Of a DNA stretch of 64,000 nt, positions 1-25,247 are shown in pieces. Where the stretch lies: the IMG/VR virus record IMGVR_UViG_3300025536_000001, positions 1-64,000 of that record. One strand, written 5' to 3'. Origin of the DNA: a virus. The number at the start of each line of letters is the position of its first letter. Positions within the stretch are counted from its first letter, which is position 1. The notes beneath the pieces are model-generated. The model was not told where the DNA came from. It saw only the letters and a program-made list of their open reading frames with translations, and made no database searches. A program made the translations under genes and the position numbers.

Positions 1-108
1 GCGTTATTCTCCGAGGTCAATGCTGCCGCTGCTGATGCAGCCGCGTTGGTTTCTGCAGTCTCAGCGTTATTCTCCGAGGTCAATGCTGCCGCTGCTGATG
101 CAGCCGCG
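1..108. repeat. Tandem duplication with 63-bp period (exact 45-bp copies at 1-45 and 64-108) inside the fibre gene
   Basis: Direct reading: gcgttattctccgaggtcaatgctgccgctgctgatgcagccgcg occurs twice. It encodes the 21-aa unit ...AAASAAAALTSENNA. Confidence 0.9.
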
Positions 109-440
109 TCATCTACATACGCCTGGATAAAATCACTGTGCCCAGAGGAGAACACATGCTTTGCACCAGCAGAGAAATTAACTGGACTGTTTGAATTGCT
201 AGAAGCCACAACCGTCTGGCTTCCACCCCGGCGTAGCGTTGTAGCATCCACCATATCAGTGCTGCCGACTTCCCATTCCCCGGTGGTTTTACATTCAATC
301 ACATAGGGAAAAGTTTGACCGCCAAAACCATAGGCTGCGTTAAAACTTTGGTATGAGCTCTCAGCACCGGTCAAGGTGAAATTTCCCAACCCGGTTGTGG
401 TAGAATTCTCAAATACCCTATCCTTTAAAATATCTGGCAT
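1..440 (-). CDS. Tail fibre / host-recognition protein, N-terminal part; ORF runs off the left edge
   Basis: Own translation of the minus strand from ATG 440-438 (AAGGAGAGAAC just upstream) gives MPDILKDRVFENSTTTGLGNFTLTGAESSYQSF... The frame is open to position 1. Ala/Ser-rich repeats resemble fibre shafts, and the gene lies directly downstream of tail genes. It is absent from the ORF track because it has no stop in the window. Confidence 0.7.
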   Translation of the reverse strand, partial: MPDILKDRVFENSTTTGLGNFTLTGAESSYQSFNAAYGFGGQTFPYVIECKTTGEWEVGSTDMVDATTLRRGGSQTVVASSNSNSPVNFSAGAKHVFSSGHSDFIQAYVDDAAASAAAALTSENNAETAETNAAASAAAALTSENN

Positions 441-10434: not shown

Positions 10435-11628
10435 TTATTCGTCAAACACAAACTGGCTTCTGGTGTCACCAAATACCAGTTTGTAACCCGTGTTCTCCGT
10501 GCGAACCATCGTGATGGTTTGCGTTTGGATTGCACGTTCCGTTTCCTGGATATTGGAACCCGACTCAACGAGTTCTTCCAGCGTATCACCTTTGCTGAAC
10601 CCGAGCAGGGTACCAGGTTCGGTAGCACTGGAAAGAACCGGCGTGATGTTCAGAGCCAGGTCGAGGCGACCAAGTTGAACACCGGCGGCATTGAGGTTGT
10701 CGATCGGACGAGCACCAAAGTTGTAGGTAGCGGCGCCAATGGTTTGCTTGCCAAACATCAGCATCCACTGCAGATACGCATCCCAGTTCATCAGGACTGT
10801 ATCAATAGGGGTGCCGGCTTGTGCGCGTGAAACCAACCAGGCCATAAGGTGAGCCCAGTTGATTTGACCGTTGGTGGCCGTGATACCAGTTGGTGTGTTG
10901 AAAGACGACTGGTTCACTGATGGAGCGGCACCATTCACACCATCACCATTCGTCAGAATGGTGGTGGCGGCGGTTACCTTGGAGATTTCCAGCTCACGAG
11001 CGATCCGGTTACCAAACGGAACCAGAAGATCCAGAGAAGCCCGGCGGCTGAACTCGTACGAAGTACGAATACCAGAACCATGCTTGAAGATCTTCACGGA
11101 CGTTTGAGAAGTCCTGATCGTACGGATCGGGATGCGGCCCATTTCAGGAACCGAGAAGGTATCGCGTTCCCCAGCGTCATCATTGATGACAGTGGAGAGC
11201 ATCTCGTTACCGGCGATGGTACGGCTATTGGCAAGCATCGGCGCCACGATTTCGAATTGATCTTGACGGGTTGCAAAACGAACCACATCATCAATCACTT
11301 CTGGGAACAGGGCACGGGTACCTGGGAAGGTTTGGAAAGTTTCCGAAGCGGCTTGCAGATAAATGCCGTTTGCGAAATCATTCCTGACGGGAAGATTCAG
11401 CTCGAACAGAGCCATCTCATAACCATCGAGACCGTCCTTTTTATCAATTTCACGACCTACCGCCAGTTGGAGGTAGTTGCGAATATTGACGCCGAAGCTG
11501 GAAGCATCCTTCGCAAGCTTGATGCCTGCGTTCTTTGATTCCTGCTCAACATCGGACTTCAGCTCTTTTACGAGCTTTGAGAGATCGATCTTTTTGATCT
11601 CACTCAGGGGGCGGGTATTGATTTGCAT
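10435..11628 (-). CDS. Major capsid protein (HK97-fold type)
   Basis: 397 aa. It follows the protease-scaffold and decoration genes and is followed by a terminator. Confidence 0.85.
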   Translation of the reverse strand: MQINTRPLSEIKKIDLSKLVKELKSDVEQESKNAGIKLAKDASSFGVNIRNYLQLAVGREIDKKDGLDGYEMALFELNLPVRNDFANGIYLQAASETFQTFPGTRALFPEVIDDVVRFATRQDQFEIVAPMLANSRTIAGNEMLSTVINDDAGERDTFSVPEMGRIPIRTIRTSQTSVKIFKHGSGIRTSYEFSRRASLDLLVPFGNRIARELEISKVTAATTILTNGDGVNGAAPSVNQSSFNTPTGITATNGQINWAHLMAWLVSRAQAGTPIDTVLMNWDAYLQWMLMFGKQTIGAATYNFGARPIDNLNAAGVQLGRLDLALNITPVLSSATEPGTLLGFSKGDTLEELVESGSNIQETERAIQTQTITMVRTENTGYKLVFGDTRSQFVFDE

Positions 11629-12094: not shown

Positions 12095-13273
12095 TTATTT
12101 CTTGTTCACTCGGAAAGCTTCCTTGCGACGATCATCAGACGCATCCGTCTGCTTCACATCCTTCTTGCCCCCATCAGAGTGGGTTGCCCCAACTGCTTGA
12201 TGGAGTTTGAGCCCCTTTTCTTCAATCATGGTGAGCATAGCCACCAGATCTTCAGGAGGGGTTGCGTCAGCTGCACCGGAAGCGACCAATGCGGCTTTTG
12301 CATGCGGAAGCATCTTTGCAGTTGCTTCCGTCAATTTCGTCTCGGCCTTTTCAGCCCGAGCGTTAATCTCTTTCTCCGATTCGGTCTTTGCACCATCGAA
12401 GGTGGCGATTTTTTTCTCCGCCTCCGCGAGTTGCGCCGTCAAAGCAGTGATCTTTGCATCTTTTTCAGAGATGGAAATATCCTTCTTTGCCAAATCAGAG
12501 GAGAGGGTAGAAACCTTATCGATAAGGTCTTTATCCATTTTGTTATCTCCTTCTTTGGGTTGAGTGTCCTCGGTCAGCTTGAACGAGGCGGTTAGGACAC
12601 GACTATCAACCGGCATTGCGCCGCTAGCAGCCAACCTGTCCAGGGTTTCCTGTCCCATGCTTTGTTTTGCACGGGGCAGAATCTTTGCGTCCTTAGATGC
12701 GCCCTTACCGACCAGGCTCATCTCGGAAAAATACTCCAGACCTGTAAGTCTCACGTGAACGCCGTCTTCCCCGATCACGTGACCTTCAGCACAGGTCAAA
12801 TTGAAAAAATTCTCAAACGTAGCGTCTTTACCGAAGTAGTCAAAGTTACACTCTGAACAGAACGCATGCTTTGTAAGAACACCAACGCTTACCTCATCAA
12901 CAATGGAGTTCTCAATATCATTGACGAGCTTGGTCTCCGTATTTGAAAGAGCAAAAAGACTGTGAAGAGTTGTCTCACCATGCGTGTCGCTCATTAAGGC
13001 GCCGTTGAAAACTTTCCCCACGGGGAGCTGTCGGGTGTCGTGCATAATCTGTAGGGGGATAGCTCCACCCGCAGCGTTCAATTTCTCCTGCATCTCAATA
13101 AGTGTTGAAGCGCTCAACCGAGCTTTATTCCAAAACCCACCCTTTGAAAGGGGCGCCGTGGATACCATGTTGGCTTCAAAAATTGAAAACTTCGACGGAT
13201 CAGCGTCAGGATCGTCGAGTGCGAACCTGAGAGCAGACTTTATTTTCTCCGTAACGAGGACTTTTTTCCCCAT
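12095..13273 (-). CDS. Prohead protease - scaffolding fusion protein
   Basis: The N-terminal part has HK97-protease-like landmarks (LQIMHDTRQLPVGKV and EMSLVGKGASKDAKIL). The C-terminal 170 aa is Lys/Glu/Ala coiled coil, typical of scaffolds. Confidence 0.7.
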   Translation of the reverse strand: MGKKVLVTEKIKSALRFALDDPDADPSKFSIFEANMVSTAPLSKGGFWNKARLSASTLIEMQEKLNAAGGAIPLQIMHDTRQLPVGKVFNGALMSDTHGETTLHSLFALSNTETKLVNDIENSIVDEVSVGVLTKHAFCSECNFDYFGKDATFENFFNLTCAEGHVIGEDGVHVRLTGLEYFSEMSLVGKGASKDAKILPRAKQSMGQETLDRLAASGAMPVDSRVLTASFKLTEDTQPKEGDNKMDKDLIDKVSTLSSDLAKKDISISEKDAKITALTAQLAEAEKKIATFDGAKTESEKEINARAEKAETKLTEATAKMLPHAKAALVASGAADATPPEDLVAMLTMIEEKGLKLHQAVGATHSDGGKKDVKQTDASDDRRKEAFRVNKK

Positions 13274-13678: not shown

Positions 13679-15145
13679 TTATTTACCTCTCTTGACTGTG
13701 TTTGATTTGGCGGACTTGTTATCTGATGGGGTTATACTGCGACCCAGAGGGTCTGAGTTAGGACTTGCACTTCCAGCGTCGACACCGGCGGCGCCAGCCA
13801 TAGGCATGAAGCCCGTACCAGAAAGTGTTGGAGAACCTGTTGGTGGTGGCCGGTTGAAAATCTCGATATGATATTCAGCATCGGTAATAAGCCCAAGACT
13901 GAGGTTTTGCATCATCCTGGATTGGCGCATTGTCAGCATAGCTTCAAGCTCGGTCTTTGGACGAAGTTCTACATCATCGAACCTACAAACCACGTACCCT
14001 GAATATCCAGTGAGGCGCATCGCCAGAGTAAACGCATCAGAGAAAAGATCCGCCACCGGTGTATTGAGAGCTTGAGCGCTCAGAGAAAAAATCCTGGCCT
14101 CGACAGTAGATGTGTTTACACCACTCTCACCGCGACCGATGATAGAAGACATGGTCTTCAGCGCCGCCTGGTTCTGAGCATTTAACACATCGATGATGGA
14201 TGTAACATCCATAGCGGTGCCGGGGCCCTTCTCATTCAGGATCTTGGACTCCACCGCATCAGTATGAACATAAACTGCATCAGGGCGCATCGTAGCAACG
14301 TCTGCAGCCACGCTATTCAACCGGTCTCTCAACCAGGTTGTCATCTTTGCTTCACTGCCAGCAATCTCCGCAGGAGCATTCTTACGAAGCACATCCTCAA
14401 GCACGGTCAGCTCGATGCGCGGATATCCGGTCTTTTGCATGATCCGATAAAGATCATTGATGACCTGCTGACGCGCGGCGATCGTATTGATTGACGAAAC
14501 AAACGGGGATTGAGGATAAAGCTCTGTAGGATTCTGCCTGTGGTATTTGACAAACAGTGTTGGAATATCCAGTTGGAGTTTATCGCTGGAAGCCTTTGGT
14601 CTCTGTTCTGGCTTATACAAGCCAGGTTGTTTTTCGTACCAGTAAAGCTCCCCCGGGTCGACAATTCTGAAATCGTTAGGGATTAGAAGTTTATCGAACA
14701 GGAGCTCGGCAGCGCAAGCACCGCGCCAGAGAATACAATAACGAAGATCCTCAGAAACTTTTCCTTGAGAGTTGGTGAACTCAAAACCAGTTGAGTAGTC
14801 CGACCTTTGGAATAGCGACCGGCGTAGCGCATCGAGTTGCTCCTGTCCTGCTGGGTCAAGCTGACCGTTTTCATCATAAGCATATACCCGCAACGGCGTA
14901 TCAGAGATTGTTAAGAACGCATGCAGGGTGGCCGAGGTATCTGAGTCGAATTTCAGAAGGTCGGTGATAAGCTGACGCGCATCCTGAGATGTCCGGTCGG
15001 TGAATATATCCCTAAGATGCTGACGAAAATCTGGAGCCGCAAGCACCTGATCAGAGGAGCTGGCATTAAAGGTGGAAGTAGAAGAAGCCCCCTTTGGGTT
15101 AGCTTTTCTCTTCGGAAGTATGATTTGTGACAGGCTCAGAGCCAT
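13679..15145 (-). CDS. Portal protein
   Basis: 488 aa, immediately downstream of the large terminase. Size and order are typical. Confidence 0.85.
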   Translation of the reverse strand: MALSLSQIILPKRKANPKGASSTSTFNASSSDQVLAAPDFRQHLRDIFTDRTSQDARQLITDLLKFDSDTSATLHAFLTISDTPLRVYAYDENGQLDPAGQEQLDALRRSLFQRSDYSTGFEFTNSQGKVSEDLRYCILWRGACAAELLFDKLLIPNDFRIVDPGELYWYEKQPGLYKPEQRPKASSDKLQLDIPTLFVKYHRQNPTELYPQSPFVSSINTIAARQQVINDLYRIMQKTGYPRIELTVLEDVLRKNAPAEIAGSEAKMTTWLRDRLNSVAADVATMRPDAVYVHTDAVESKILNEKGPGTAMDVTSIIDVLNAQNQAALKTMSSIIGRGESGVNTSTVEARIFSLSAQALNTPVADLFSDAFTLAMRLTGYSGYVVCRFDDVELRPKTELEAMLTMRQSRMMQNLSLGLITDAEYHIEIFNRPPPTGSPTLSGTGFMPMAGAAGVDAGSASPNSDPLGRSITPSDNKSAKSNTVKRGK

Positions 15146-15165
15146 TATAATCCCCTCACACTACT

Positions 15166-16905
15166 TTATAGCCAGGAGTGTTTATTCGCAATAGCCTTGT
15201 TATCAGATTTCGAGACCCCGATCAAGCCGGCGCCCCCGTCTTTTATATCAACAACCTTACCAAGAACCATAGTTCTCGTCTCCAGTTTTGAAGTTAACCT
15301 AAACATTTCAAGTATATGCGGAGCAGCCAGCATGAACCCAGTTGCGTGGAAGAAGTGATCATTCTTCGTCAGCTTTCTCCATTGTGCAGGTTCACCCGGC
15401 ACTTCATCCCTTACCATGTCGCGGAGATGCTCTATGAACACGGTCTTATATTGTGAGTACCCGCTGATGCGTAATTTTCTCTTCTTAATGATTGTGGAAA
15501 CTCTATCAAGAAACGAGGTGTGATTTACTTGGACGTGGGAAAGATTTTTCTCCACATCGTAAACCATATTGATGTCTTTTTGTCCTCGATACTCCACGGC
15601 AACGATTTTACCGCCTGATACATTAAAAACATCTTGAGCAGTAGGTTCATAAGGATGCCTATCAATACAACCTCCATAAACATTTGATGTGGCACAAAGA
15701 TCTCTCACGTGTTCAACAAGTTGGTCTATATGAACCGTGTACATGTTGATGATCTCTGGGGACTCAGCGCTCCCGCGCCCGATAATGATATGGCACACCT
15801 GACCAACGTCTATACCGACCCAGATTCCTTCAGCCTTTGACGACTCCAGCGGTGCCGGGTTATCGGTCATACAGGCTATGATATCTTCTTTAGGAATTTG
15901 GATAGTTCCATCTGAATAGGGAAGGCCTAGAACTGTATTCCACCACCCGCGGGTGAACTCAAGCTTCTGATACTTCCAAAGTTCTCTGACAATATAATTG
16001 ACCGGGAGTTTGTTGGTACAGAACGGAGTAACACGATAGCCTCTCGATTCTGTCCTGCTTGGATATTTTGAAACCCATTCACCTATGTCTGACAGATCCA
16101 GCCTTGTACGACATTTGGCGCACATCACAAACGAAGCAGACAAATCAATAACATCTTGATGCTCTACACGAAGATCAGCAAGATTCTCGATATTATCCGG
16201 GAGTCCAGGAATGTTGATATACTCTCTATTGAACTCAGGAATATTCCAGTTCCCGCAACAGGTACAGCGGCGCATATAGTTGTGTTGATCGCTGGCTTGC
16301 CAGTTGAGGTCTATGCCGAATGCCGGGAATGAGGGGGTTGAAAATCTTTGACTTATCTTCCAGGTGGAGTTCTGTAGACGAGAACCGAACAGACCAAGGG
16401 TTTGTTGATTTGAAAGATCTACCTCATCATTAAAGACGGCATCAGCGCTGATGGAAGTCGCGGCGGTTTCTATCGCTGCGACCACGTAGAGAAATGATCT
16501 TCCGAACTGCATCATCCCCATCGATCGGGAGTTTCCGTCCTGCGCGGCAAATACTTTATCGGTATTGATAATGGGCTTGATACGCCCACTTGAAATCCGT
16601 TCGAACATCTCCTGGGTGGGTAAGCTGTAAATCGCAGACAAACCATCGTGGCGCCTGAGAAACGCGAGGATTTTTCTGATCATCACTTCAGTAAGACCGA
16701 CCTGAGATATTTTAATGCAATCCAGGTTGGGGTGCATGTCGTCCAGGATTTTTCTCTGGAAGTCGTATCCCTTAAACGAAAAAGGCTTTCCCAAAATTGT
16801 CGTATTTTTGCTGACCCACTCAGACATTGACATAGTGAGCGAGTCTACGGAAAACCTCTCGTCGGATTTTTTCAATAACTCTACGGCGAAACGATTTATG
16901 GACAT
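15166..16905 (-). CDS. Terminase large subunit (lambda GpA type)
   Basis: 579 aa. IKISQVGLTE resembles the gpA-type P-loop (KSARVGYS), and FNDEVDL is Walker-B-like. It is the first gene of the late operon. Confidence 0.9.
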   Translation of the reverse strand: MSINRFAVELLKKSDERFSVDSLTMSMSEWVSKNTTILGKPFSFKGYDFQRKILDDMHPNLDCIKISQVGLTEVMIRKILAFLRRHDGLSAIYSLPTQEMFERISSGRIKPIINTDKVFAAQDGNSRSMGMMQFGRSFLYVVAAIETAATSISADAVFNDEVDLSNQQTLGLFGSRLQNSTWKISQRFSTPSFPAFGIDLNWQASDQHNYMRRCTCCGNWNIPEFNREYINIPGLPDNIENLADLRVEHQDVIDLSASFVMCAKCRTRLDLSDIGEWVSKYPSRTESRGYRVTPFCTNKLPVNYIVRELWKYQKLEFTRGWWNTVLGLPYSDGTIQIPKEDIIACMTDNPAPLESSKAEGIWVGIDVGQVCHIIIGRGSAESPEIINMYTVHIDQLVEHVRDLCATSNVYGGCIDRHPYEPTAQDVFNVSGGKIVAVEYRGQKDINMVYDVEKNLSHVQVNHTSFLDRVSTIIKKRKLRISGYSQYKTVFIEHLRDMVRDEVPGEPAQWRKLTKNDHFFHATGFMLAAPHILEMFRLTSKLETRTMVLGKVVDIKDGGAGLIGVSKSDNKAIANKHSWL

Positions 16906-17521: not shown

Positions 17522-17692
17522 ATGCTATTCATACGCGCCTTCCTCTTTACAGCTGCCAGCTTATTGCTGATCAGCGCAGGTAAAGTGATCTACAACTTCT
17601 TTCCTCTCCCCACAGAATATTTTCCTCTCTCTATATCCATCTTCATCGGGCTCAGCCTGGCGATTGGATATAAGATTTACGAGGAGTATTGA
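17522..17692 (+). CDS. Small two-TM membrane protein (56 aa)
   Basis: Own translation: MLFIRAFLFTAASLLLISAGKVIYNFFPLPTEYFPLSISIFIGLSLAIGYKIYEEY. GGGAG upstream. Below the track length cut-off. Confidence 0.5.
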   Translation: MLFIRAFLFTAASLLLISAGKVIYNFFPLPTEYFPLSISIFIGLSLAIGYKIYEEY

Positions 17693-17694
17693 AC

Positions 17695-20124
17695 ATGATT
17701 TTCGGACAGGAAGCCCCTAAATATAACGCCCACGGCATCTCGGTTGTGCCACTTGGAGCGCATGGGAAAAAACGTAAGGCGCCCTTCTTCAATGACTGGA
17801 CGAAATGGAAAGACAAGCCCATAGATTCAGCCACCTTGGAAAACTGGTTGGCCAGGTTTGCAAACAACAACATCGGCCTGGTTTGTGGACCACAATCCCA
17901 AATCGTAGGTGTGGACTTAGATACTGAAGATCCCAAGATCGCCGCGGCGATCGAGAAACTCCTTCCTAAATCCCCGTGGCGCCGGGTGGGTCGTAAAGGG
18001 TTTGTACAAGCCTACAAGTTCAACCCAAAGTGCAACAACGGTAAGACCTTTAAGATCATAGACAAGAATGGAGCGATGCTCGTCGAGTGTCTGCAAATGG
18101 GGAACCAGTTTGTTCTTCCCCCATCCATCCACCCCGACACAGAGAAACCGTATACGTCTAACTGCAACTTGTATGATGTGCTTGATCAGCTTCTACCCCT
18201 TCCAGATGATTTCGAGGATCAGCTTCGCGCAGCGATCTCCCTTATCACACCGCTGGAGAACAAGAAGAGCTTCCGCGTTATGAACTATGTCTCCGCCGGG
18301 TCGCGCGACACAGCCATGACCCAATTCGCCGGCATGCAAGCCTACGCCATACAGCGCGGTGAAATCTCGGTCAAGACCGGCATCAACAACATGTATTCAT
18401 GGGTCACCAACCAGGTGCAGCAAGTGGCGGGTGACGCGACTGACCCCGATAAAGGTGTCAAGAGCATGCTGCAGTTTCTGATCAAGGACATTCACAGCAA
18501 AGGACACATCCTCCCTACTGGTTGGGATGAGGACATGACCGAAGAAGAGCTGAAGGGTTACGGACTGATCTTCACGGAAGATCAACAAGAATGGACACAT
18601 GATCAAATCTACGCGTACTTGAAGGGTGAGTTCGAAGCACCAGAGGGTGGCAGTTCGAGAAAATACACGGCTATAGAGCTGATGCTGAAAAAAATATCTG
18701 TCTCCCCTAAACTGTCGATCATAGAAAAGAAACGGCTGATGAAATATATCAGCGGAAATTCCCCAGAAAAAGTACCGATGGGTGTGTTCGAGGCTCGAGT
18801 CAGAGAACTACAGCGCGGCGGTATCGCCGGTGCCAACCATACCGAGATCGCCCACGAAGCGATAAAAGAGTTCGAAGATAAAATAGGCCCACTCGCCTTC
18901 GCCGAAGGTTTCTTTATGACTTGGGGCGGGTCTCACTGGAAGAAGGTTGTTGAGAAGGACATCCTGAGAATGATCGCCGTGGACTTCGGCGCCATGGATG
19001 CGGCAAGGAGGGAGAGCGATCATAAGGGAATCATGCGCACCATATCAACTCTGGTACCTCAGGAGTTGAGCAAGACCCGAGTGTTCGGGGTGAACTTCGC
19101 CAACGGGTTCCTGACCACCGATATGAGACTGGTAGAGCATCAACCCAGCTTCGGAATGACCTACACACTCCCGTTCAGGTATATGCCTAGTCAGGCTGGG
19201 AAGTGCCCAAGGTTCCTGAAGATGATGGAAGACTTCTGGGGTAATGAAAAAGATTACGCCGAGCGTCTTCATGCCCTGAAGGAAGTGATCTCCGCGACGA
19301 TCATGGGTAAGGGACCCGCATACCAACAGGCGATCCTTCTAAAAGGAAAAGGCGGAACAGGAAAATCACAGCTCCTGAATATAATCGAGACGATGATCCC
19401 TGAAGAAGCCCAGATTGCACTTCCTCCAACGGAATGGAGCGAGAAGTTTGAGTTCGCAGGCCTGGCCGGCAAGTTGTTAAACGTCTGCGGAGAGTTGCCT
19501 GAGAAAGCATATATCGATGGCGCCGCATTCAAAAGTGTTGTGGCAGGGGATAAAAAAACCTCACGTCATATTTTTGGAAGCCCGTTCAGCTTCTTCCCTG
19601 TAGCAGCGCATTGGTTTTCATCGAACCACTTTCCCAAATCGAGAGACACCAGTTTTGGTTTTAACCGCAGATGGGCGATCTTCACATTCAACAACCACAT
19701 CTACAATGAAGATAAGGTGGAATCTATCGGTAAAAGTATCGCGGAAGAAGAGATTGAAGAGATCGTGGCTTGGGCTCTCGAGATTTACCCGGAGATGAGT
19801 GGACGACCAACATATAAATTACCACCAAGCCATTTTGAAGCGCTGAAAGATCTTGAACTGACAAACTCAAGCGTCAGACAATTTCTTGTAGAACGAGTTG
19901 TGGTCGAAGAAGGCGCGACCATAGGTCTGGATGAGGCGCACCTTGCGTACTGGTCATACGCAACGGTTGCAGCCTCATCCAGTGCTGTCTCAAAACAACG
20001 GTTCAAAACCGAGATGGAAGACTACTGCAATGAAGGACGGGAGAAGGGTGAACTGAACATCACCTTCGAGCGCGGAGCCCAAGGCAAATTCGTATTTCAT
20101 AATATGAAAGTGCTGAAGAAATGA
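17695..20124 (+). CDS. Bifunctional primase-polymerase (Prim-Pol) / D5-P4-type helicase
   Basis: The N-terminus (GISVVPL...NNIGLVCGPQSQIVGVDLD) fits the Prim-Pol domain. The C-terminus has Walker A LLKGKGGTGKSQLLN, as in P4/D5 primase-helicases. ATG 17695 follows GAGGAG. Confidence 0.85.
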   Translation: MIFGQEAPKYNAHGISVVPLGAHGKKRKAPFFNDWTKWKDKPIDSATLENWLARFANNNIGLVCGPQSQIVGVDLDTEDPKIAAAIEKLLPKSPWRRVGRKGFVQAYKFNPKCNNGKTFKIIDKNGAMLVECLQMGNQFVLPPSIHPDTEKPYTSNCNLYDVLDQLLPLPDDFEDQLRAAISLITPLENKKSFRVMNYVSAGSRDTAMTQFAGMQAYAIQRGEISVKTGINNMYSWVTNQVQQVAGDATDPDKGVKSMLQFLIKDIHSKGHILPTGWDEDMTEEELKGYGLIFTEDQQEWTHDQIYAYLKGEFEAPEGGSSRKYTAIELMLKKISVSPKLSIIEKKRLMKYISGNSPEKVPMGVFEARVRELQRGGIAGANHTEIAHEAIKEFEDKIGPLAFAEGFFMTWGGSHWKKVVEKDILRMIAVDFGAMDAARRESDHKGIMRTISTLVPQELSKTRVFGVNFANGFLTTDMRLVEHQPSFGMTYTLPFRYMPSQAGKCPRFLKMMEDFWGNEKDYAERLHALKEVISATIMGKGPAYQQAILLKGKGGTGKSQLLNIIETMIPEEAQIALPPTEWSEKFEFAGLAGKLLNVCGELPEKAYIDGAAFKSVVAGDKKTSRHIFGSPFSFFPVAAHWFSSNHFPKSRDTSFGFNRRWAIFTFNNHIYNEDKVESIGKSIAEEEIEEIVAWALEIYPEMSGRPTYKLPPSHFEALKDLELTNSSVRQFLVERVVVEEGATIGLDEAHLAYWSYATVAASSSAVSKQRFKTEMEDYCNEGREKGELNITFERGAQGKFVFHNMKVLKK

Positions 20125-22078: not shown

Positions 22079-22172
22079 GCCCGACACCGCCGGCGCCCGA
22101 CACCGCCGGCGCCCGACACCGCCGGCGCCCGACACCGCCGACACCGCCGGCGCCCGACACCGCCGGCGCCCG
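22079..22172. repeat. GC-rich 16-bp tandem repeat (GCCCGACACCGCCGGC), about 5.8 copies
   Basis: Direct reading: units start at 22079, 22095, 22111, 22127 (with an internal 9-bp GACACCGCC duplication) and 22152. The array lies in an otherwise AT-rich non-coding region. Confidence 0.95.
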
Positions 22173-22367
22173 TCCTATGTCCTTGACACAGGACAATTAC
22201 CATAACCTGGAGTAAACGGTCAAAAATTTTTTATAATAGACCCAACATTATAATAGCACACGCCCTAGTTGTGAAAATAAAATCATAGTACCCTTATTAT
22301 ACATATTTATTATGTAAGTCATTGATTCAATTGAATTATATTATTTATTTTAATCGTTAAAATTGTG

Positions 22368-22424: not shown

Positions 22425-22523
22425 GTAAATGAAAGGTTTACAATGGCCGGAGGTAGGTCTGATTTTCATAACGGGGTGCGCCCTGAACAAGGGACAACCA
22501 TGTCTAAAATCAACCTGCTGCTG

Positions 22524-22536
22524 GTTAGAGTCTAAC
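22524..22536. repeat. GTTAGAnTCTAAC palindrome, copy 1 (n=G), in the leader of the first early gene
   Basis: Exact match. Flanks extend it to GGTTAGAGTCTAACC. It closes an 11-codon leader ORF (22500-22535). Confidence 0.95.
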
Positions 22537-22557
22537 CTTTTTAATGGAGTGAAAAAC

Positions 22558-23046
22558 ATGACTGCTAAAAAAATCGACGTAAAATCTAATTTGAAAGCTA
22601 TTAATACGGCTTTTGAAAATCTAGCTTCTGCCGACTCGGTAAAAAAAGGCGCGGTTGCTATTATCGCAAACAATAGCTTTGCATTGCTTCAATCAGGCGA
22701 CTTAAATGCTCTCGCTGAATTGCAGGCCATACAAAATAACAAGGCGCTTAATTCGTCCGGCAAGTCGGCAATTTCCCAAGCAAAAAGCGTATTCAAAGCT
22801 AATCCCGATTTTACGGGAAGCATTTTGACTGAAGCAAAGCGCATGAGAGACGAAAAACGAGCTGCTGAAAAAGCGAAAGAAGCAGAAGCAGAAGCAGCGA
22901 AAAAATCCGCTCCAGTCATTCCAATGTCTGAGCAGGTAACAAAGTATCTTCTGCACATCCGGGACACAGATAAGGAGACGTTCGCTGCGATTATGGCAAG
23001 CGTCCTCCCGAAAACCGCAGCGGTCAAAACCAAAAAAGCCGCGTAA
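22558..23046 (+). CDS. First early protein, Lys/Ala-rich (162 aa)
   Basis: ATG 22558 after GGAGTG. C-terminal AEKAKEAEAEAAKK...KTAAVKTKKAA is basic and low-complexity. The longer track start lies upstream of the leader palindrome and is unlikely. Confidence 0.6.
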   Translation: MTAKKIDVKSNLKAINTAFENLASADSVKKGAVAIIANNSFALLQSGDLNALAELQAIQNNKALNSSGKSAISQAKSVFKANPDFTGSILTEAKRMRDEKRAAEKAKEAEAEAAKKSAPVIPMSEQVTKYLLHIRDTDKETFAAIMASVLPKTAAVKTKKAA

Positions 23047-23061
23047 TATCAACCACTTAGC

Positions 23062-23101
23062 AGGGCGCCGTCCTCACCGGCGGCGCCCTCGCTATCTTTT
23101 T
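23062..23101 (+). terminator. Possible terminator / attenuator
   Basis: AGGGCGCCG and CGGCGCCCT form a 9-bp stem. The T-run starts 6 nt after the stem, so the structure is imperfect. Confidence 0.45.
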
Positions 23102-23129: not shown

Positions 23130-23645
23130 ATGAATTTCCAAAAAGCCAAAATTCTCGTTGCCCAAGCGCGTACATTTTCTGACCCCTACACTTTTCTGGT
23201 CAACTCGATGGCCGGCGCTCGTAATGCCGAAGAACTCGCGTACCCGCTCTGCGCCTATCTCGAGTTAGACTCTAACGCGGTAGTGCCCCAGACTCCCATG
23301 TTCGTATCCGCCATGACCATCATTGAGAATGCGCGGTATTACGAGGCACAGGCTTTCCTGCACAAGCTTGGGGTCCTGCAGACCGGCACCGCCCGTTCTC
23401 TCCTCTCAGAACTGCCCAGAAGCGCCCTGCAGGGGCCCAGGGACACCCTTGTCTCAAAGTATGAGCCAGACATCTCACCATCTGATATGATGCGCAAAGA
23501 AGCCGCGCAGCAGCGTTCTCTGACTGGTTCTGGTGGTCATATCCTGAAATCGATCAAGAAGCGTAAGTTCGGGGCCCCGGACGACAGGGTGTTCTCCCAC
23601 TCAAAGACCGCATTCACAATCAAAACCTCAGGAGGGTTGATGTAA
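23130..23645 (+). CDS. Early hypothetical protein (171 aa)
   Basis: ATG 23130 after GGAGAA. Contains palindrome copy 2 in frame (LELDSNAV). Confidence 0.6.
   Translation: MNFQKAKILVAQARTFSDPYTFLVNSMAGARNAEELAYPLCAYLELDSNAVVPQTPMFVSAMTIIENARYYEAQAFLHKLGVLQTGTARSLLSELPRSALQGPRDTLVSKYEPDISPSDMMRKEAAQQRSLTGSGGHILKSIKKRKFGAPDDRVFSHSKTAFTIKTSGGLM
23264..23276. repeat. GTTAGAnTCTAAC palindrome, copy 2 (n=C), inside a CDS
   Basis: Exact match, read as L-D-S-N. Confidence 0.95.
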
Positions 23646-23652
23646 TCGCCAC

Positions 23653-23769
23653 GGGCACCCTCCCCGACTCCATGCGGGTCTCGAGGGTGCCCCGCTTGAC
23701 GGGCACCGTCCGTATTCTGCGCGACACGCGCCACACCCTGTGTGCGTGATGCCGTTACGGACGGTGCCC
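23653..23769 (+). other. Nested long hairpins built from GGGCACC-type motifs
   Basis: GGGCACCCTC (23653-62) pairs with GAGGGTGCCC (23683-92). GGGCACCGTCCGT (23701-13) pairs with ACGGACGGTGCCC (23757-69). The second loop holds GCGCG-aca-CGCGC and CACAC-cct-GTGTG mini-hairpins. Confidence 0.7.
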
Positions 23770-23799
23770 GGATTGCGTTGCATGCTGATATAGCAGTTT

Positions 23800-23812
23800 G
23801 TTAGAGTCTAAC
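23800..23812. repeat. GTTAGAnTCTAAC palindrome, copy 3 (n=G), intergenic
   Basis: Exact match, 17 nt upstream of the parS site. Confidence 0.95.
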
Positions 23813-23828
23813 CTAATGCCATACCCAT

Positions 23829-23844
23829 TGTTTCACGTGAAACA
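23829..23844. promoter_or_regulatory. parS: Canonical parS site TGTTTCACGTGAAACA
   Basis: Exact match to the palindromic chromosomal parS consensus (TGTTNCACGTGAAACA). Flanks extend it to the 20-bp palindrome ATTGTTTCACGTGAAACAAT (23827-23846). Confidence 0.8.
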
Positions 23845-23867
23845 ATCGTCAGAACTCGCAAACCATT

Positions 23868-23907
23868 TTAACTCGCCGAATTAACTCGCCCATCAGTTTA
23901 ACTCGCC
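23868..23907 (+). repeat. Three direct TTAACTCGCC repeats (iteron-like)
   Basis: Copies at 23868-77, 23881-90 and 23898-907, plus a degenerate AGAACTCGCA at 23851-60. An AT-rich tract of about 450 bp follows. Confidence 0.8.
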
Positions 23908-24382
23908 GGTTTAGGCTGGGGAGGGTGCCCTCACACCGTTGTGCTATCTATTTGACATAGCGAAGCAGATACAATAACTTTCCATATTTTATACTCTTTG
24001 TATTCTATTTTTTATATATAATATAGATATAGTATAAAAGAGATACCATTCAAAAAATTATGAAAATACCCTTGACCCTGGAATTGGAAAATAAAGTGTA
24101 GTACACAGTGAATCGCCTATAAGTGAGATTTCACCATTTATTTATAATACACTATTATGACTAAAAATGTTAACGATTAGGGCACCATCCCCCTGATTTC
24201 TCTCATCTATTTTTTTCACCTTTTTTTTCATTTTCCTTAAAAATGACTTCCAATAACACGAAGTTATCTTACACTTTTTGAGCCTTTTTTGAAAACTCAA
24301 AAATGAGGTACTATAGCACCACTTTTATTCTTTTCCACTAACATTATGACGGATTATCAATATTATTTAATTACAAAATTTT

Positions 24383-24395
24383 GTTAGATTCTAAC
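24383..24395. repeat. GTTAGAnTCTAAC palindrome, copy 4 (n=T), intergenic
   Basis: Exact match. Flanks TT...AA extend the symmetry to 17 bp. Confidence 0.95.
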
Positions 24396-24440
24396 AAGAC
24401 TACGAATAATATTTAATCCATAATAATCCCATTTCTCTCA

Positions 24441-24469
24441 TTGACCCTACCTAAAAAGTGTATTACACT
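24441..24469 (+). promoter_or_regulatory. Candidate promoter overlapping a GTGTAnTACAC palindrome
   Basis: TTGACC, 17 nt, TACACT. The spacer and -10 contain AGTGTAtTACACT (24458-24470). A related TTGACCCT...GTGTAgTACAC module lies at 24072-24106. Confidence 0.4.
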
Positions 24470-24509
24470 AGCCAACATATCTCCACTTACAATTCACAAA
24501 GGATTACAT

Positions 24510-25247
24510 ATGAAAAGCGAAGACGGATACTTAGGGTTCTACGGCCTGTCTCACTACAAACCAGAGAAATTCGAACCCGCAATCCCTAAGGTAATGAAGA
24601 AACACATTCTGGTTTTACCTGAATGGACGGAGCCTTCCAATTTTCGCCTAATGGAATGCGCGGAGCGCCGGGCGCTGATGGGCACCCTCCGTGATACCTC
24701 TGTCACTACCTTCGAATATAACCTCCCCTGGGTGTGGTTTGGGGGCTACACCACGAAGCGGAAGCATGCAACCTACCATGAGGGCAGCACCATCCGTCCC
24801 GTTGCGCGTAGCCTGTTCGAAATCGCATTCGGAGAGACGCCCTTCATTCAGGGGCGCCGTATGTATTCTATCCGCAAGAGGATGCCGCGTATCATGCCGG
24901 TAGAGGGATTCTATCTCAGCGATGTAAACCCGTTTCACTACATGCCGGCTGGACTCGGCCATTATCGAGAGAACGTAATAGGGTGGATGAACCGTACCTA
25001 CCTGCCGCACAGTGATGCCAGTAAAGCTGACCGCTTCAAGAAATGGGTATTCGAGAACCGCATGCGGTACTGTTTCGACGATGTGTTCGACGGGCATGTG
25101 CAGTGTGAGGATGATACTTGGGTGGACAATGTACTCGCACTCGTCGTGCGCGAAGGAAAGGACTTCAGCCGTGAAGTAATAAAAGAACTCATGGACAGGT
25201 ACAAGGCATTACCCAACAGCCGAATACTCGACCACCTGGATTTTTGA
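24510..25247 (+). CDS. Early protein with a degenerate His-Me finger / HNH_3-like region (tentative)
   Basis: 245 aa from ATG 24510. PVARSLFEIAFGE...VEGFYLSDVNPFHYMP resembles the homing-endonuclease pattern (fG.iP...H.C.N..CvNP.HL) but lacks the Cys/His ligands. Confidence 0.4.
   Translation: MKSEDGYLGFYGLSHYKPEKFEPAIPKVMKKHILVLPEWTEPSNFRLMECAERRALMGTLRDTSVTTFEYNLPWVWFGGYTTKRKHATYHEGSTIRPVARSLFEIAFGETPFIQGRRMYSIRKRMPRIMPVEGFYLSDVNPFHYMPAGLGHYRENVIGWMNRTYLPHSDASKADRFKKWVFENRMRYCFDDVFDGHVQCEDDTWVDNVLALVVREGKDFSREVIKELMDRYKALPNSRILDHLDF

Follow-up and report, generated by a model that had tools for sequence, protein, structure and literature searches.

A perfect chromosomal-type parS palindrome in a siphovirus genome with no detected ParB or ParA gene

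ParB–parS is the main chromosome-partition and SMC-loading system in most bacteria, and some phages are themselves partitioned, the plasmid prophages P1 and N15 carrying self-contained ParABS or SopABC cassettes. Lin and Grossman reportedly found in 1998 that plasmids are stabilised by a cloned chromosomal parS together with host Spo0J/Soj. ParB–parS is essential in Caulobacter and Hyphomonas (PMC7022226), the mycobacteriophage RedRock has a self-contained partition cassette (PMC7157519), and SGI1 uses the ParABS system of its IncC helper plasmid, i.e. it is a hijacker that brings only a centromere (PMC10954446). A further relevant precedent is the injection-stop region of phage T5, where the untranslated portion of the terminal repeat contains eight DnaA boxes, kept in 25 T5-like phages; entry of the DNA is proposed to stop when membrane-associated DnaA binds them (Davison 2020, bioRxiv 10.1101/866236). 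Full-text literature searches found no description of chromosomal-type parS on phage genomes or of host ParB on phage DNA. Here we describe a perfect chromosomal-type parS site in positions 1 to 64,000 of the IMG/VR record IMGVR_UViG_3300025536_000001 (this whole 64-kb stretch is termed the window), which belong to an ~81-kb siphovirus genome in which we find no gene for ParB or ParA.

The parS site, its relatives and the search for ParB

The site was compared with a motif specified beforehand, and the 16-bp palindrome fits the parS consensus tGTTNCACGTGAAACa at all 16 positions (consensus as given in PMC7022226). Its perfect match, and the longer palindrome in which it lies, were read at the coordinates given in a preliminary description of this DNA:

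23829–23844, unstranded: parS, TGTTTCACGTGAAACA, matching at 16/16 positions; unique in the window, equal to a published parS and identical to the 16-mer at 14490–14505 of the relative L208
23827–23846, unstranded: 20-bp perfect palindrome ATTGTTTCACGTGAAACAAT extending parS

The local DNA reads ...cccATTGTTTCACGTGAAACAATcgt.... That this is the conserved chromosomal parS, as the same description had it, is borne out by published sites: a review table lists TGTTTCACGTGAAACA as the parS of Hyphomonas, and this form fits the consensus of the Caulobacter, Vibrio chrI and Burkholderia chrI sites (PMC7022226). An exact 16-mer is expected by chance ~1.5e-5 times per window (64000/4^16), and parS is single-copy, being the sole match in the window even with up to three mismatches allowed, for which 0.25 chance matches are expected.

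Both proteins flanking parS are ORFans (open reading frames, ORFs, for which no homologues were found), and the primase was therefore chosen as the anchor for finding related phages. As a single query against IMG/VR the window primase gave no matches; relatives were retrieved with an alignment of 32 primases, the nearest homologues being 45% identical. The retrieved loci, with flanks of up to 10 kb, numbered 79 in IMG/VR, 79 in metagenomes and 78 in genome assemblies; together with the contigs of three of the closest homologues, they were scanned for parS with up to two mismatches, over ~3.2 Mb. In L208, the closest relative (primase 45% identical), an identical TGTTTCACGTGAAACA lies in non-coding DNA 2.1 kb downstream of the primase. 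Homology between the ORFs that flank parS in the window and those in L208 was not detectable, and a short-word comparison over ~4 kb found only two conserved DNA islands, of which one is the 18-mer ATTGTTTCACGTGAAACA that represents parS and the other a promoter-like 22-mer, AATAAAATYATAGTACCCTTAT, ~1.5 kb upstream. The distant relative L179 (primase 33% identical, 41% GC) carries TGTTCCACGTGGAACA at 15138–15153, in the syntenic intergenic position 2.7 kb downstream of its primase. This site differs from that of the window by a symmetric T-to-C/A-to-G change in both half-sites, which yields the Pseudomonas-type parS reported for P. putida and P. aeruginosa (PMC7022226), and an 'AT' flank on one side is common to all three phages. 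These two exact matches to either variant, both non-coding and 2–3 kb past the primase, compare with ~1.5e-3 expected over the ~3.2 Mb. Two weaker candidates were rejected: a two-mismatch match in L184 (TTATTCACGTGAAACA), which is located within an ORF, 9 kb away from the primase, and was put down to chance, and a three-mismatch site in L210, which is not palindromic and was not counted.

Because L208 keeps an identical site amid flanks that cannot be aligned, and L179 a natural variant at the syntenic place, selection appears, from these comparisons, to act on parS as a ParB site in related replicons. The same observations bear on the possibility that the palindrome arose by chance, or that it is left over from captured host DNA and has no function. 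Its single copy, its absence from most relatives and its degenerate form in L210 would be in keeping with such an origin, which is opposed by the ~1.5e-5 exact matches expected per window, by the conservation in L208 and L179, and by the finding that other viral contigs (among the matches listed; see below) have most of their perfect parS sites between genes and often carry more than one; we consider it very improbable. That an orphan parS is real and selected is, by the same token, well supported.

The surroundings of the L179 site (15112–15408) differ in kind from those in the window. Here parS forms part of a longer palindrome, TCCGGATTGTTCCACGTGGAACAGTCCGGA, which is followed by DnaA boxes and then by ~100 bp of alternating purine–pyrimidine (GC/GT) sequence; the five perfect DnaA boxes, TTATCCACA, follow parS at a distance of no more than 9 bp, and no second cluster of such boxes occurs in the 3.3 Mb of related sequence. 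The combination of parS, DnaA boxes and purine–pyrimidine tract mimics an oriC-proximal region on a phage.

A cognate ParB or ParA was sought both by family and by profile. Pfam scans of ~110 window ORFs (E≤0.01) found no ParBc, KorB or ParA-type family, and precomputed Pfam lists for the genes outside the window (tail genes) hold no ParB/ParA family. Jackhmmer searches seeded with B. subtilis Spo0J (residues 21–218 of which are 100% identical to PDB 6SDK) and with M. xanthus ParB found nothing in six-frame translations of the window and of L003 and L007, which sample the rest of the source genome, nor in the loci of the parS-bearing relatives L208 and L179. No parA–parB operon adjoins parS, and par genes are absent across the sampled genome, ~77 of the 81 kb. 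The lack of ParA and ParB in the window, remarked on earlier, thus holds under both methods and extends to the sampled remainder of the genome, and since no cognate protein was found there we regard parS as an orphan.

Perfect parS sites are not confined to this phage family. An IMG/VR scan for the exact 16-mer returned at least 120 contigs, and the figures that follow refer to the matches listed. By crude ORF calling, 98 of 166 perfect sites are intergenic; 27 contigs have two to five perfect copies; and ParB was found within the fetched flanks of one contig only. The sampled multi-copy contigs code for terminase, portal and tape-measure proteins and are clearly tailed phages. Two of these, which are related to each other, have five perfect copies of TGTTTCACGTGAAACA each, separated by unrelated spacers and situated beside the genes for the small and large terminase subunits, TerS and TerL (L029:2657–3444 and L069:10535–11462), with no ParB within the fetched flanks; L014, L028 and L114 have four copies each. 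In 13 of the 59 complete contigs parS lies within 300 bp of a contig end, where 6.2 would be expected. One small contig, L108 (11,725 bp), has perfect parS at 132–147 and 11579–11594, mirror positions 131 bp from its ends, which suggests either inverted terminal repeats that each contain parS or a palindromic assembly artefact. Because many other viral contigs carry perfect parS without a nearby ParB, the orphan parS phenomenon may be general among viruses.

We consider it probable that the palindrome is a functional, host-matched loading site for ParB, carried without a phage ParB, i.e. an orphan centromere-type site. That its binder would be host ParB, rather than a phage protein, is suggested by the DnaA boxes of L179, because sites for a host origin-region protein appear to have been recruited to this position at least once more; of the arguments for host ParB as the binder, we judge this to be the strongest.

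Genome organisation and the setting of parS

On the minus strand, the first 17 kb of the window code for the tape-measure protein, portal, large terminase and major capsid protein; the plus strand from 17 to 61 kb codes for a Prim-Pol/D5-type primase-helicase, thymidylate synthase, rIIA, a helicase, a family-A DNA polymerase, SbcCD and many small early ORFs. The window is 99.8–100% identical to the ENA contig ERZ27300258:k141_298295 (81,140 bp) and to JGI and Logan assembly fragments. Over 20.5 kb the sole difference from the ENA contig is a 32-bp (two-unit) deletion in the tandem array listed below, of which the window has ~6 units and the ENA contig four, i.e. copy number varies between samples. 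As the ENA contig is identical across the parS region, sample micro-diversity is uninformative for parS. Bases 1–36 of the window do not extend into the ENA contig, and the JGI fragment L005:1678–1774 repeats window positions 13–109 after position 1723; this mismatch at the window start probably reflects an artefact of the assembly end among the tail genes, unrelated to parS.

The site lies in a gap of 864 bp between the ORFs at 23130–23645 and 24510–25247, in line with the non-coding region of ~860 bp described previously, as are the GTTAGAGTCTAAC copy found just before parS and the direct repeats that begin at 23853, just after it. From left to right the gap contains GC-rich hairpins (23650–23780), the GTTAGAGTCTAAC palindrome, parS, the direct repeats, the second arm of a 13-bp inverted repeat and ~550 bp of AT-rich DNA. 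The features of this part of the window are as follows:

17689–20124, plus strand: Prim-Pol/D5-type primase-helicase (P4 family), 3.7 kb upstream of parS; anchor for the relatives
22079–22172, plus strand: GC-rich tandem array of 16-bp units, GCCCGACACCGCCGGC (~6 copies), between the primase and the putative terminal repeat
22276–22297, plus strand: promoter-like island AATAAAATCATAGTACCCTTAT, conserved with L208; similar sequence in L210
22429–23046, plus strand: ORFan, 205-aa ORF (162 aa as called in the source contig), with a terminator-like hairpin (23062–23089) after the gene
23130–23645, plus strand: ORFan, 171 aa, directly upstream of the non-coding region
23653–23930, unstranded: perfect 13-bp inverted repeat, arms GGGCACCCTCCCC (23653–23665) and GGGGAGGGTGCCC (23918–23930)
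23700–23714 and 23756–23770: 15-bp arms of a GC-rich hairpin
23800–23812, unstranded: GTTAGAGTCTAAC, a copy of the multi-copy palindrome GTTAGANTCTAAC; an element separate from parS, ending 16 nt before the 16-mer
23853–23909, plus strand: four direct repeats, core AACTCG(C), starting at 23853, 23870, 23883 and 23900 (spacing 17/13/17)
23950–24509, plus strand: AT-rich stretch (22–34% GC, ~550 bp) with sigma-70-like promoter matches, upstream of the first rightward early gene
24510–25247, plus strand: first early ORF, 245 aa, an ORFan, downstream of the non-coding region

The ORFs flanking the non-coding region have no Pfam matches. The 13-bp inverted repeat encloses the GC-rich hairpin, the GTTAGA palindrome, parS and the direct repeats. 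Three of the four direct repeats contain the full TTAACTCGCC, of which there are no other exact copies in the window, and the AACTCG(C) repeats could be iterons or repeats that flank a terminal repeat. L208 has a similar four-copy AACTCG cluster in the same orientation (15198–15276), situated ~700 bp from parS across a 173-aa ORF.

Related phages suggest what this region may be. The records of the GenBank relatives all start or end 1–3.4 kb downstream of the primase. For Caulobacter phage Seuss, direct terminal repeats of 1,748 bp are annotated over three small genes after the primase module, the repeat ending within an AT-rich stretch, 95 nt beyond the last gene, and having GC-rich tandem repeats on its primase side. 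For Achromobacter phage JWF (NC_029075.1), the ends 1–1466 and 80076–81541 (L371 and L373) are 100% identical over 1,466 bp, comprising two small genes, duplicated as gp001/gp070 and gp002/gp069, plus 61 nt; no repeat_region was among the annotated features returned for either end, and the identity indicates that these are direct terminal repeats. The window has a matching layout, with the primase module, a terminator, the tandem array at 22079–22172, promoter and AT-rich DNA, two ORFans, the non-coding region and the early genes in succession. On this analogy its terminal repeat probably measures ~1.5–2 kb and ends near 23.70–23.75 kb, which would place parS ~100 bp beyond the inner edge, with the AACTCG repeats also just outside it; the AACTCG cluster of L208 occupies the corresponding place. 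The ORFan at 22429–23046 is probably the first gene of the repeat, and the 171-aa ORFan, by comparison with JWF gp001/gp070 and Seuss gp001, probably the last; the AATAAAATYATAGTACCCTTAT island is probably the promoter of these putative terminal-repeat genes. This promoter-like sequence is kept in the three closest phages (window 22276–22297, L208:13361–13382, L210:~12709–12735), where its surroundings are not.

The same region has features of an iteron-type origin, namely the four AACTCG(C) repeats (23853–23909), the ~550 bp of 22–34% GC and a primase-helicase 3.7 kb upstream; these are permissive and do not amount to proof. The AT-rich stretch at 23950–24509 could act as a DNA-unwinding region. 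No DnaA box (TTATNCACA) occurs in the window, and GC skew was discarded as evidence for an origin, since local base composition in the non-coding region confounds its cumulative minimum at ~24–25 kb. The terminal-repeat and iteron-origin readings of the parS context are mutually compatible.

This setting raises the possibility of a structural or cis-acting element at the terminal-repeat boundary, i.e. a cruciform or hairpin for terminase, or an origin element, in which ParB has no role. The boundary predicted at 23.70–23.75 kb by analogy with JWF and Seuss, ~100 bp from parS, the repeat arrays on both sides of the putative terminal repeat, the parS arrays that adjoin terminase genes in L029 and L069, and the 13 of 59 complete viral contigs with parS less than 300 bp from an end (6.2 expected) are all consistent with this. 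A structural element would not, however, require this precise sequence, but L208 matches it at all 16 positions and the L179 variant is again a natural parS; moreover, the L208 site is ~600 bp from its predicted boundary, across an ORF. We consider this explanation improbable.

A role in RNA, as a terminator or stabilising hairpin in the 3′ untranslated region of the 171-aa gene, was also considered. The RNA fold of 23640–23950 has z = -5.05, and in the structure of minimum energy the palindrome pairs as an 8-bp stem, but the folding energy comes mainly from the GC-rich repeats and not from the palindrome. No T-run follows the palindrome, a terminator scan was negative, there is no Rfam match, and the window and L208 show none of the compensatory changes that would be permitted in an RNA hairpin. 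It is thus hard to credit that the palindrome acts as RNA.

Possible phage-encoded binders and points against host ParB

The multi-copy palindrome GTTAGANTCTAAC, found 16 nt from parS, occurs 14 times between 22524 and 39124, in the early region only, against 0.13 copies expected. Its sites, which include 22524, 23264, 23800, 24383, 25517 and 25868, lie in both coding and non-coding DNA, and several of the non-coding copies stand ahead of GGGCACCCTCC(CC), a small hairpin and then a ribosome-binding site. It looks like an operator or promoter element of a phage-encoded regulator. Different multi-copy palindromes are found in the early regions of L140, L141, L171, L155, L188, L144, L145, L129, L148 and L189 (examples from relatives being TTGTTCCAACGTTGGAACAA, GAAAAGTGCAATTGCACTTTTC, TTTCCCCGGCCGGGGAAA and AGTCCTAGCTAGGACT), which suggests a regulator-and-site pair that co-evolves across the phage family. 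We examined parS as a potential member of the window phage's palindrome family and rejected this, the family motif being GTTAGANTCTAAC and L208 and L179 having no multi-copy palindromes.

A phage-encoded protein might nevertheless bind parS, for example the DNA-binding domain of the P4-family primase-helicase or an ORFan early protein, in which case the palindrome would be an operator or origin site with no more than a resemblance to parS. The alpha primase of P4 binds iterons of the TGTTCACC type at the P4 origin. In the present family, the 14 copies of GTTAGANTCTAAC imply a phage-encoded dimeric binder, the multi-copy palindromes of some relatives have TGTT(T/C)C half-sites, and the direct repeats and AT-rich stretch that adjoin parS are typical of origins. 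Against such a protein stand the 16/16 host motif in two phages with primases only 45% identical and the exact Pseudomonas variant in a third (L179, 33% identical), whose neighbouring repeats are host DnaA boxes. The site is, furthermore, single-copy, with no clustering of GTTTCAC half-sites; the 22-kb loci sampled yielded no protein specific to the parS-bearing phages; and multi-copy palindromes are lacking in both L208 and L179. On balance we think a phage-encoded binder rather unlikely.

Several observations weigh against recognition of the palindrome by host ParB. Firstly, parS is absent, at up to two mismatches, from the loci of ~240 other relatives and from what was sampled of Seuss (54 of 85 kb) and of JWF (43.5 of 81.5 kb), phages of host groups that possess ParABS; L210, of the same clade, has only the degenerate CATTTCATGTGAAACA. 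The site is accordingly lineage-specific and accessory, and dispensable for this type of phage. The preliminary description had reasoned that lack of conservation in related phages would speak against a function, and on this count the proposal came through, the site being kept in L208, and as a variant in L179, without being family-wide. Secondly, its position relative to the neighbouring gene is not fixed, parS being downstream of the ~172-aa ORF in the window and upstream of the counterpart in L208. Thirdly, the multi-copy palindromes of the relatives mean that phage-encoded palindrome binders exist in this family, and some of these palindromes have parS-like half-sites (L129, TGTTTGTACAAACA; L139, TGTTTCGTACGAAACA; L140, TGTTCCAACGTTGGAACA). 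Finally, the search for ParB covered all but ~2.4 kb of the source genome, between tail genes, and the terminal-repeat placement of the window phage is made purely by analogy.

Host, possible roles and comparison with known systems

The parS region shows no DNA similarity to GenBank phages in either near or distant search modes. At the protein level, TerL is 35–42% identical to those of Achromobacter phage JWF, Pseudoalteromonas phage KB12-38, Caulobacter phage Seuss, Xylophilus phage Lumi and some Acinetobacter phages. Assemblies of Kiloniella, Inquilinus, Mesorhizobium, Azospirillum, Devosia, Sphingopyxis, Methylorubrum and Burkholderia contain relatives, by TerL, portal and capsid, that share its gene order; in the first two genera TerL is ~50% identical to that of the window. 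For this reason an alphaproteobacterial host is plausible; it would fit the parS variant. Both the Alphaproteobacteria and Burkholderia have members with chromosomal ParABS systems and the same type of parS, namely Caulobacter, Hyphomonas and Burkholderia cenocepacia (PMC7022226), which speaks for the host-ParB reading.

With rIIA, PolA, primase-helicase and SbcCD, and with no integrase or CI-type repressor family found in the Pfam scans of ~110 window ORFs, the phage looks to be of virulent type. In L291, L294, L296, L299, L301 and L312, the capsid–portal–TerL/primase order occurs inside bacterial contigs of 216–665 kb (contigs of this kind being from Kiloniella, Mesorhizobium, Azospirillum, Devosia and Burkholderia paludis). 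As these contigs far exceed the size of the phage genome, some family members may be integrated as prophages or stably carried, and the lifestyle of the window phage should not be assumed.

If host ParB does recognise the site, established ParB biology would predict that, after entry of the phage DNA, ParB dimers nucleate on the 16 bp, bind cytidine triphosphate (CTP), close into clamps and slide onto the adjoining phage DNA. The resulting complex would cover the non-coding control region beside the direct repeats and the AT-rich early promoters. The preliminary description listed as possible consequences ParB spreading and SMC loading, segregation of a carrier-state or plasmid-like episome, local silencing and titration of host ParB; to this list the terminal-repeat boundary context adds anchoring and injection-stop roles. 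Of the speculative pay-offs for the phage, we would rank first a tethering or positioning function for the phage genome as it enters or replicates, a T5-like pause in entry at the repeat boundary being one form of this; second, distribution of phage episomes by host ParAB, with SMC loaded onto them, during slow or carrier-state infection; third, titration of host ParB by many phage copies, which would disturb host segregation and division; and fourth, damping of the adjacent early promoters by ParB.

A wider proposal can be framed, which we advance tentatively and would not expect to hold in full. It is that several unrelated lineages of tailed phages carry host-matched orphan parS, singly or in arrays of up to five by the terminase genes, and thereby commandeer ParB–CTP clamps; that in the present case the site, at the inner edge of the terminal repeat and accompanied in L179 by DnaA boxes, would serve as a docking or injection-stop signal dependent on a host protein, with ParB in the part that the T5 model gives to DnaA; and that many copies would sequester ParB from the host chromosome.

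Should host ParB indeed be the binder, a phage would be using or sabotaging the host partition machinery with a cis-acting site alone, encoding no protein for the purpose, and such host takeover would be invisible to gene-centred annotation. A single 16-bp site would offer a simple, testable handle on phage genome location, DNA entry and early transcription at terminal repeats, and would bear on whether ParB titration contributes to host shut-down. The parS variant may also predict the host, the TTTC/GAAA form occurring in the window and the TTCC/GGAA form, with E. coli-type DnaA boxes, in L179, and the site may lend itself, as a natural tag, to the imaging of phage DNA by means of ParB fusions.

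Compared with the chromosomal complexes of parS and ParB (Spo0J)–CTP, the window has the identical 16-bp palindrome beside repeats and AT-rich DNA, as near replication origins. The phage site is, however, single, has neither ParB nor ParA of the phage to serve it, and is probably situated at the boundary of a terminal repeat, not in a chromosomal ori domain. P1, N15 and RedRock likewise have a centromere-like site on a phage genome, but they encode their own ParA and ParB and have their own, non-chromosomal parS by those genes, whereas the window site is of the host chromosomal type and no par genes were found. The logic is closer to that of SGI1 and of plasmids with a cloned parS, in which the cis site alone is carried and ParAB comes from another replicon; those elements are plasmid-like or integrative and are kept over generations, whereas this phage looks virulent and its ParB donor would be the host chromosome. 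In comparison with the T5 stop signal, the window lacks a DnaA box and has parS, and its putative repeat is ~1.5–2 kb, as opposed to ~10 kb in T5; the DnaA model for T5 is itself a proposal. Both nevertheless have sites for host origin proteins in a large, repeat-rich untranslated region, on the inner side of a terminal repeat (in the window a putative one) with a few, first-expressed genes, and in the relative L179 the likeness extends to the DnaA boxes themselves, five of which stand right beside parS.

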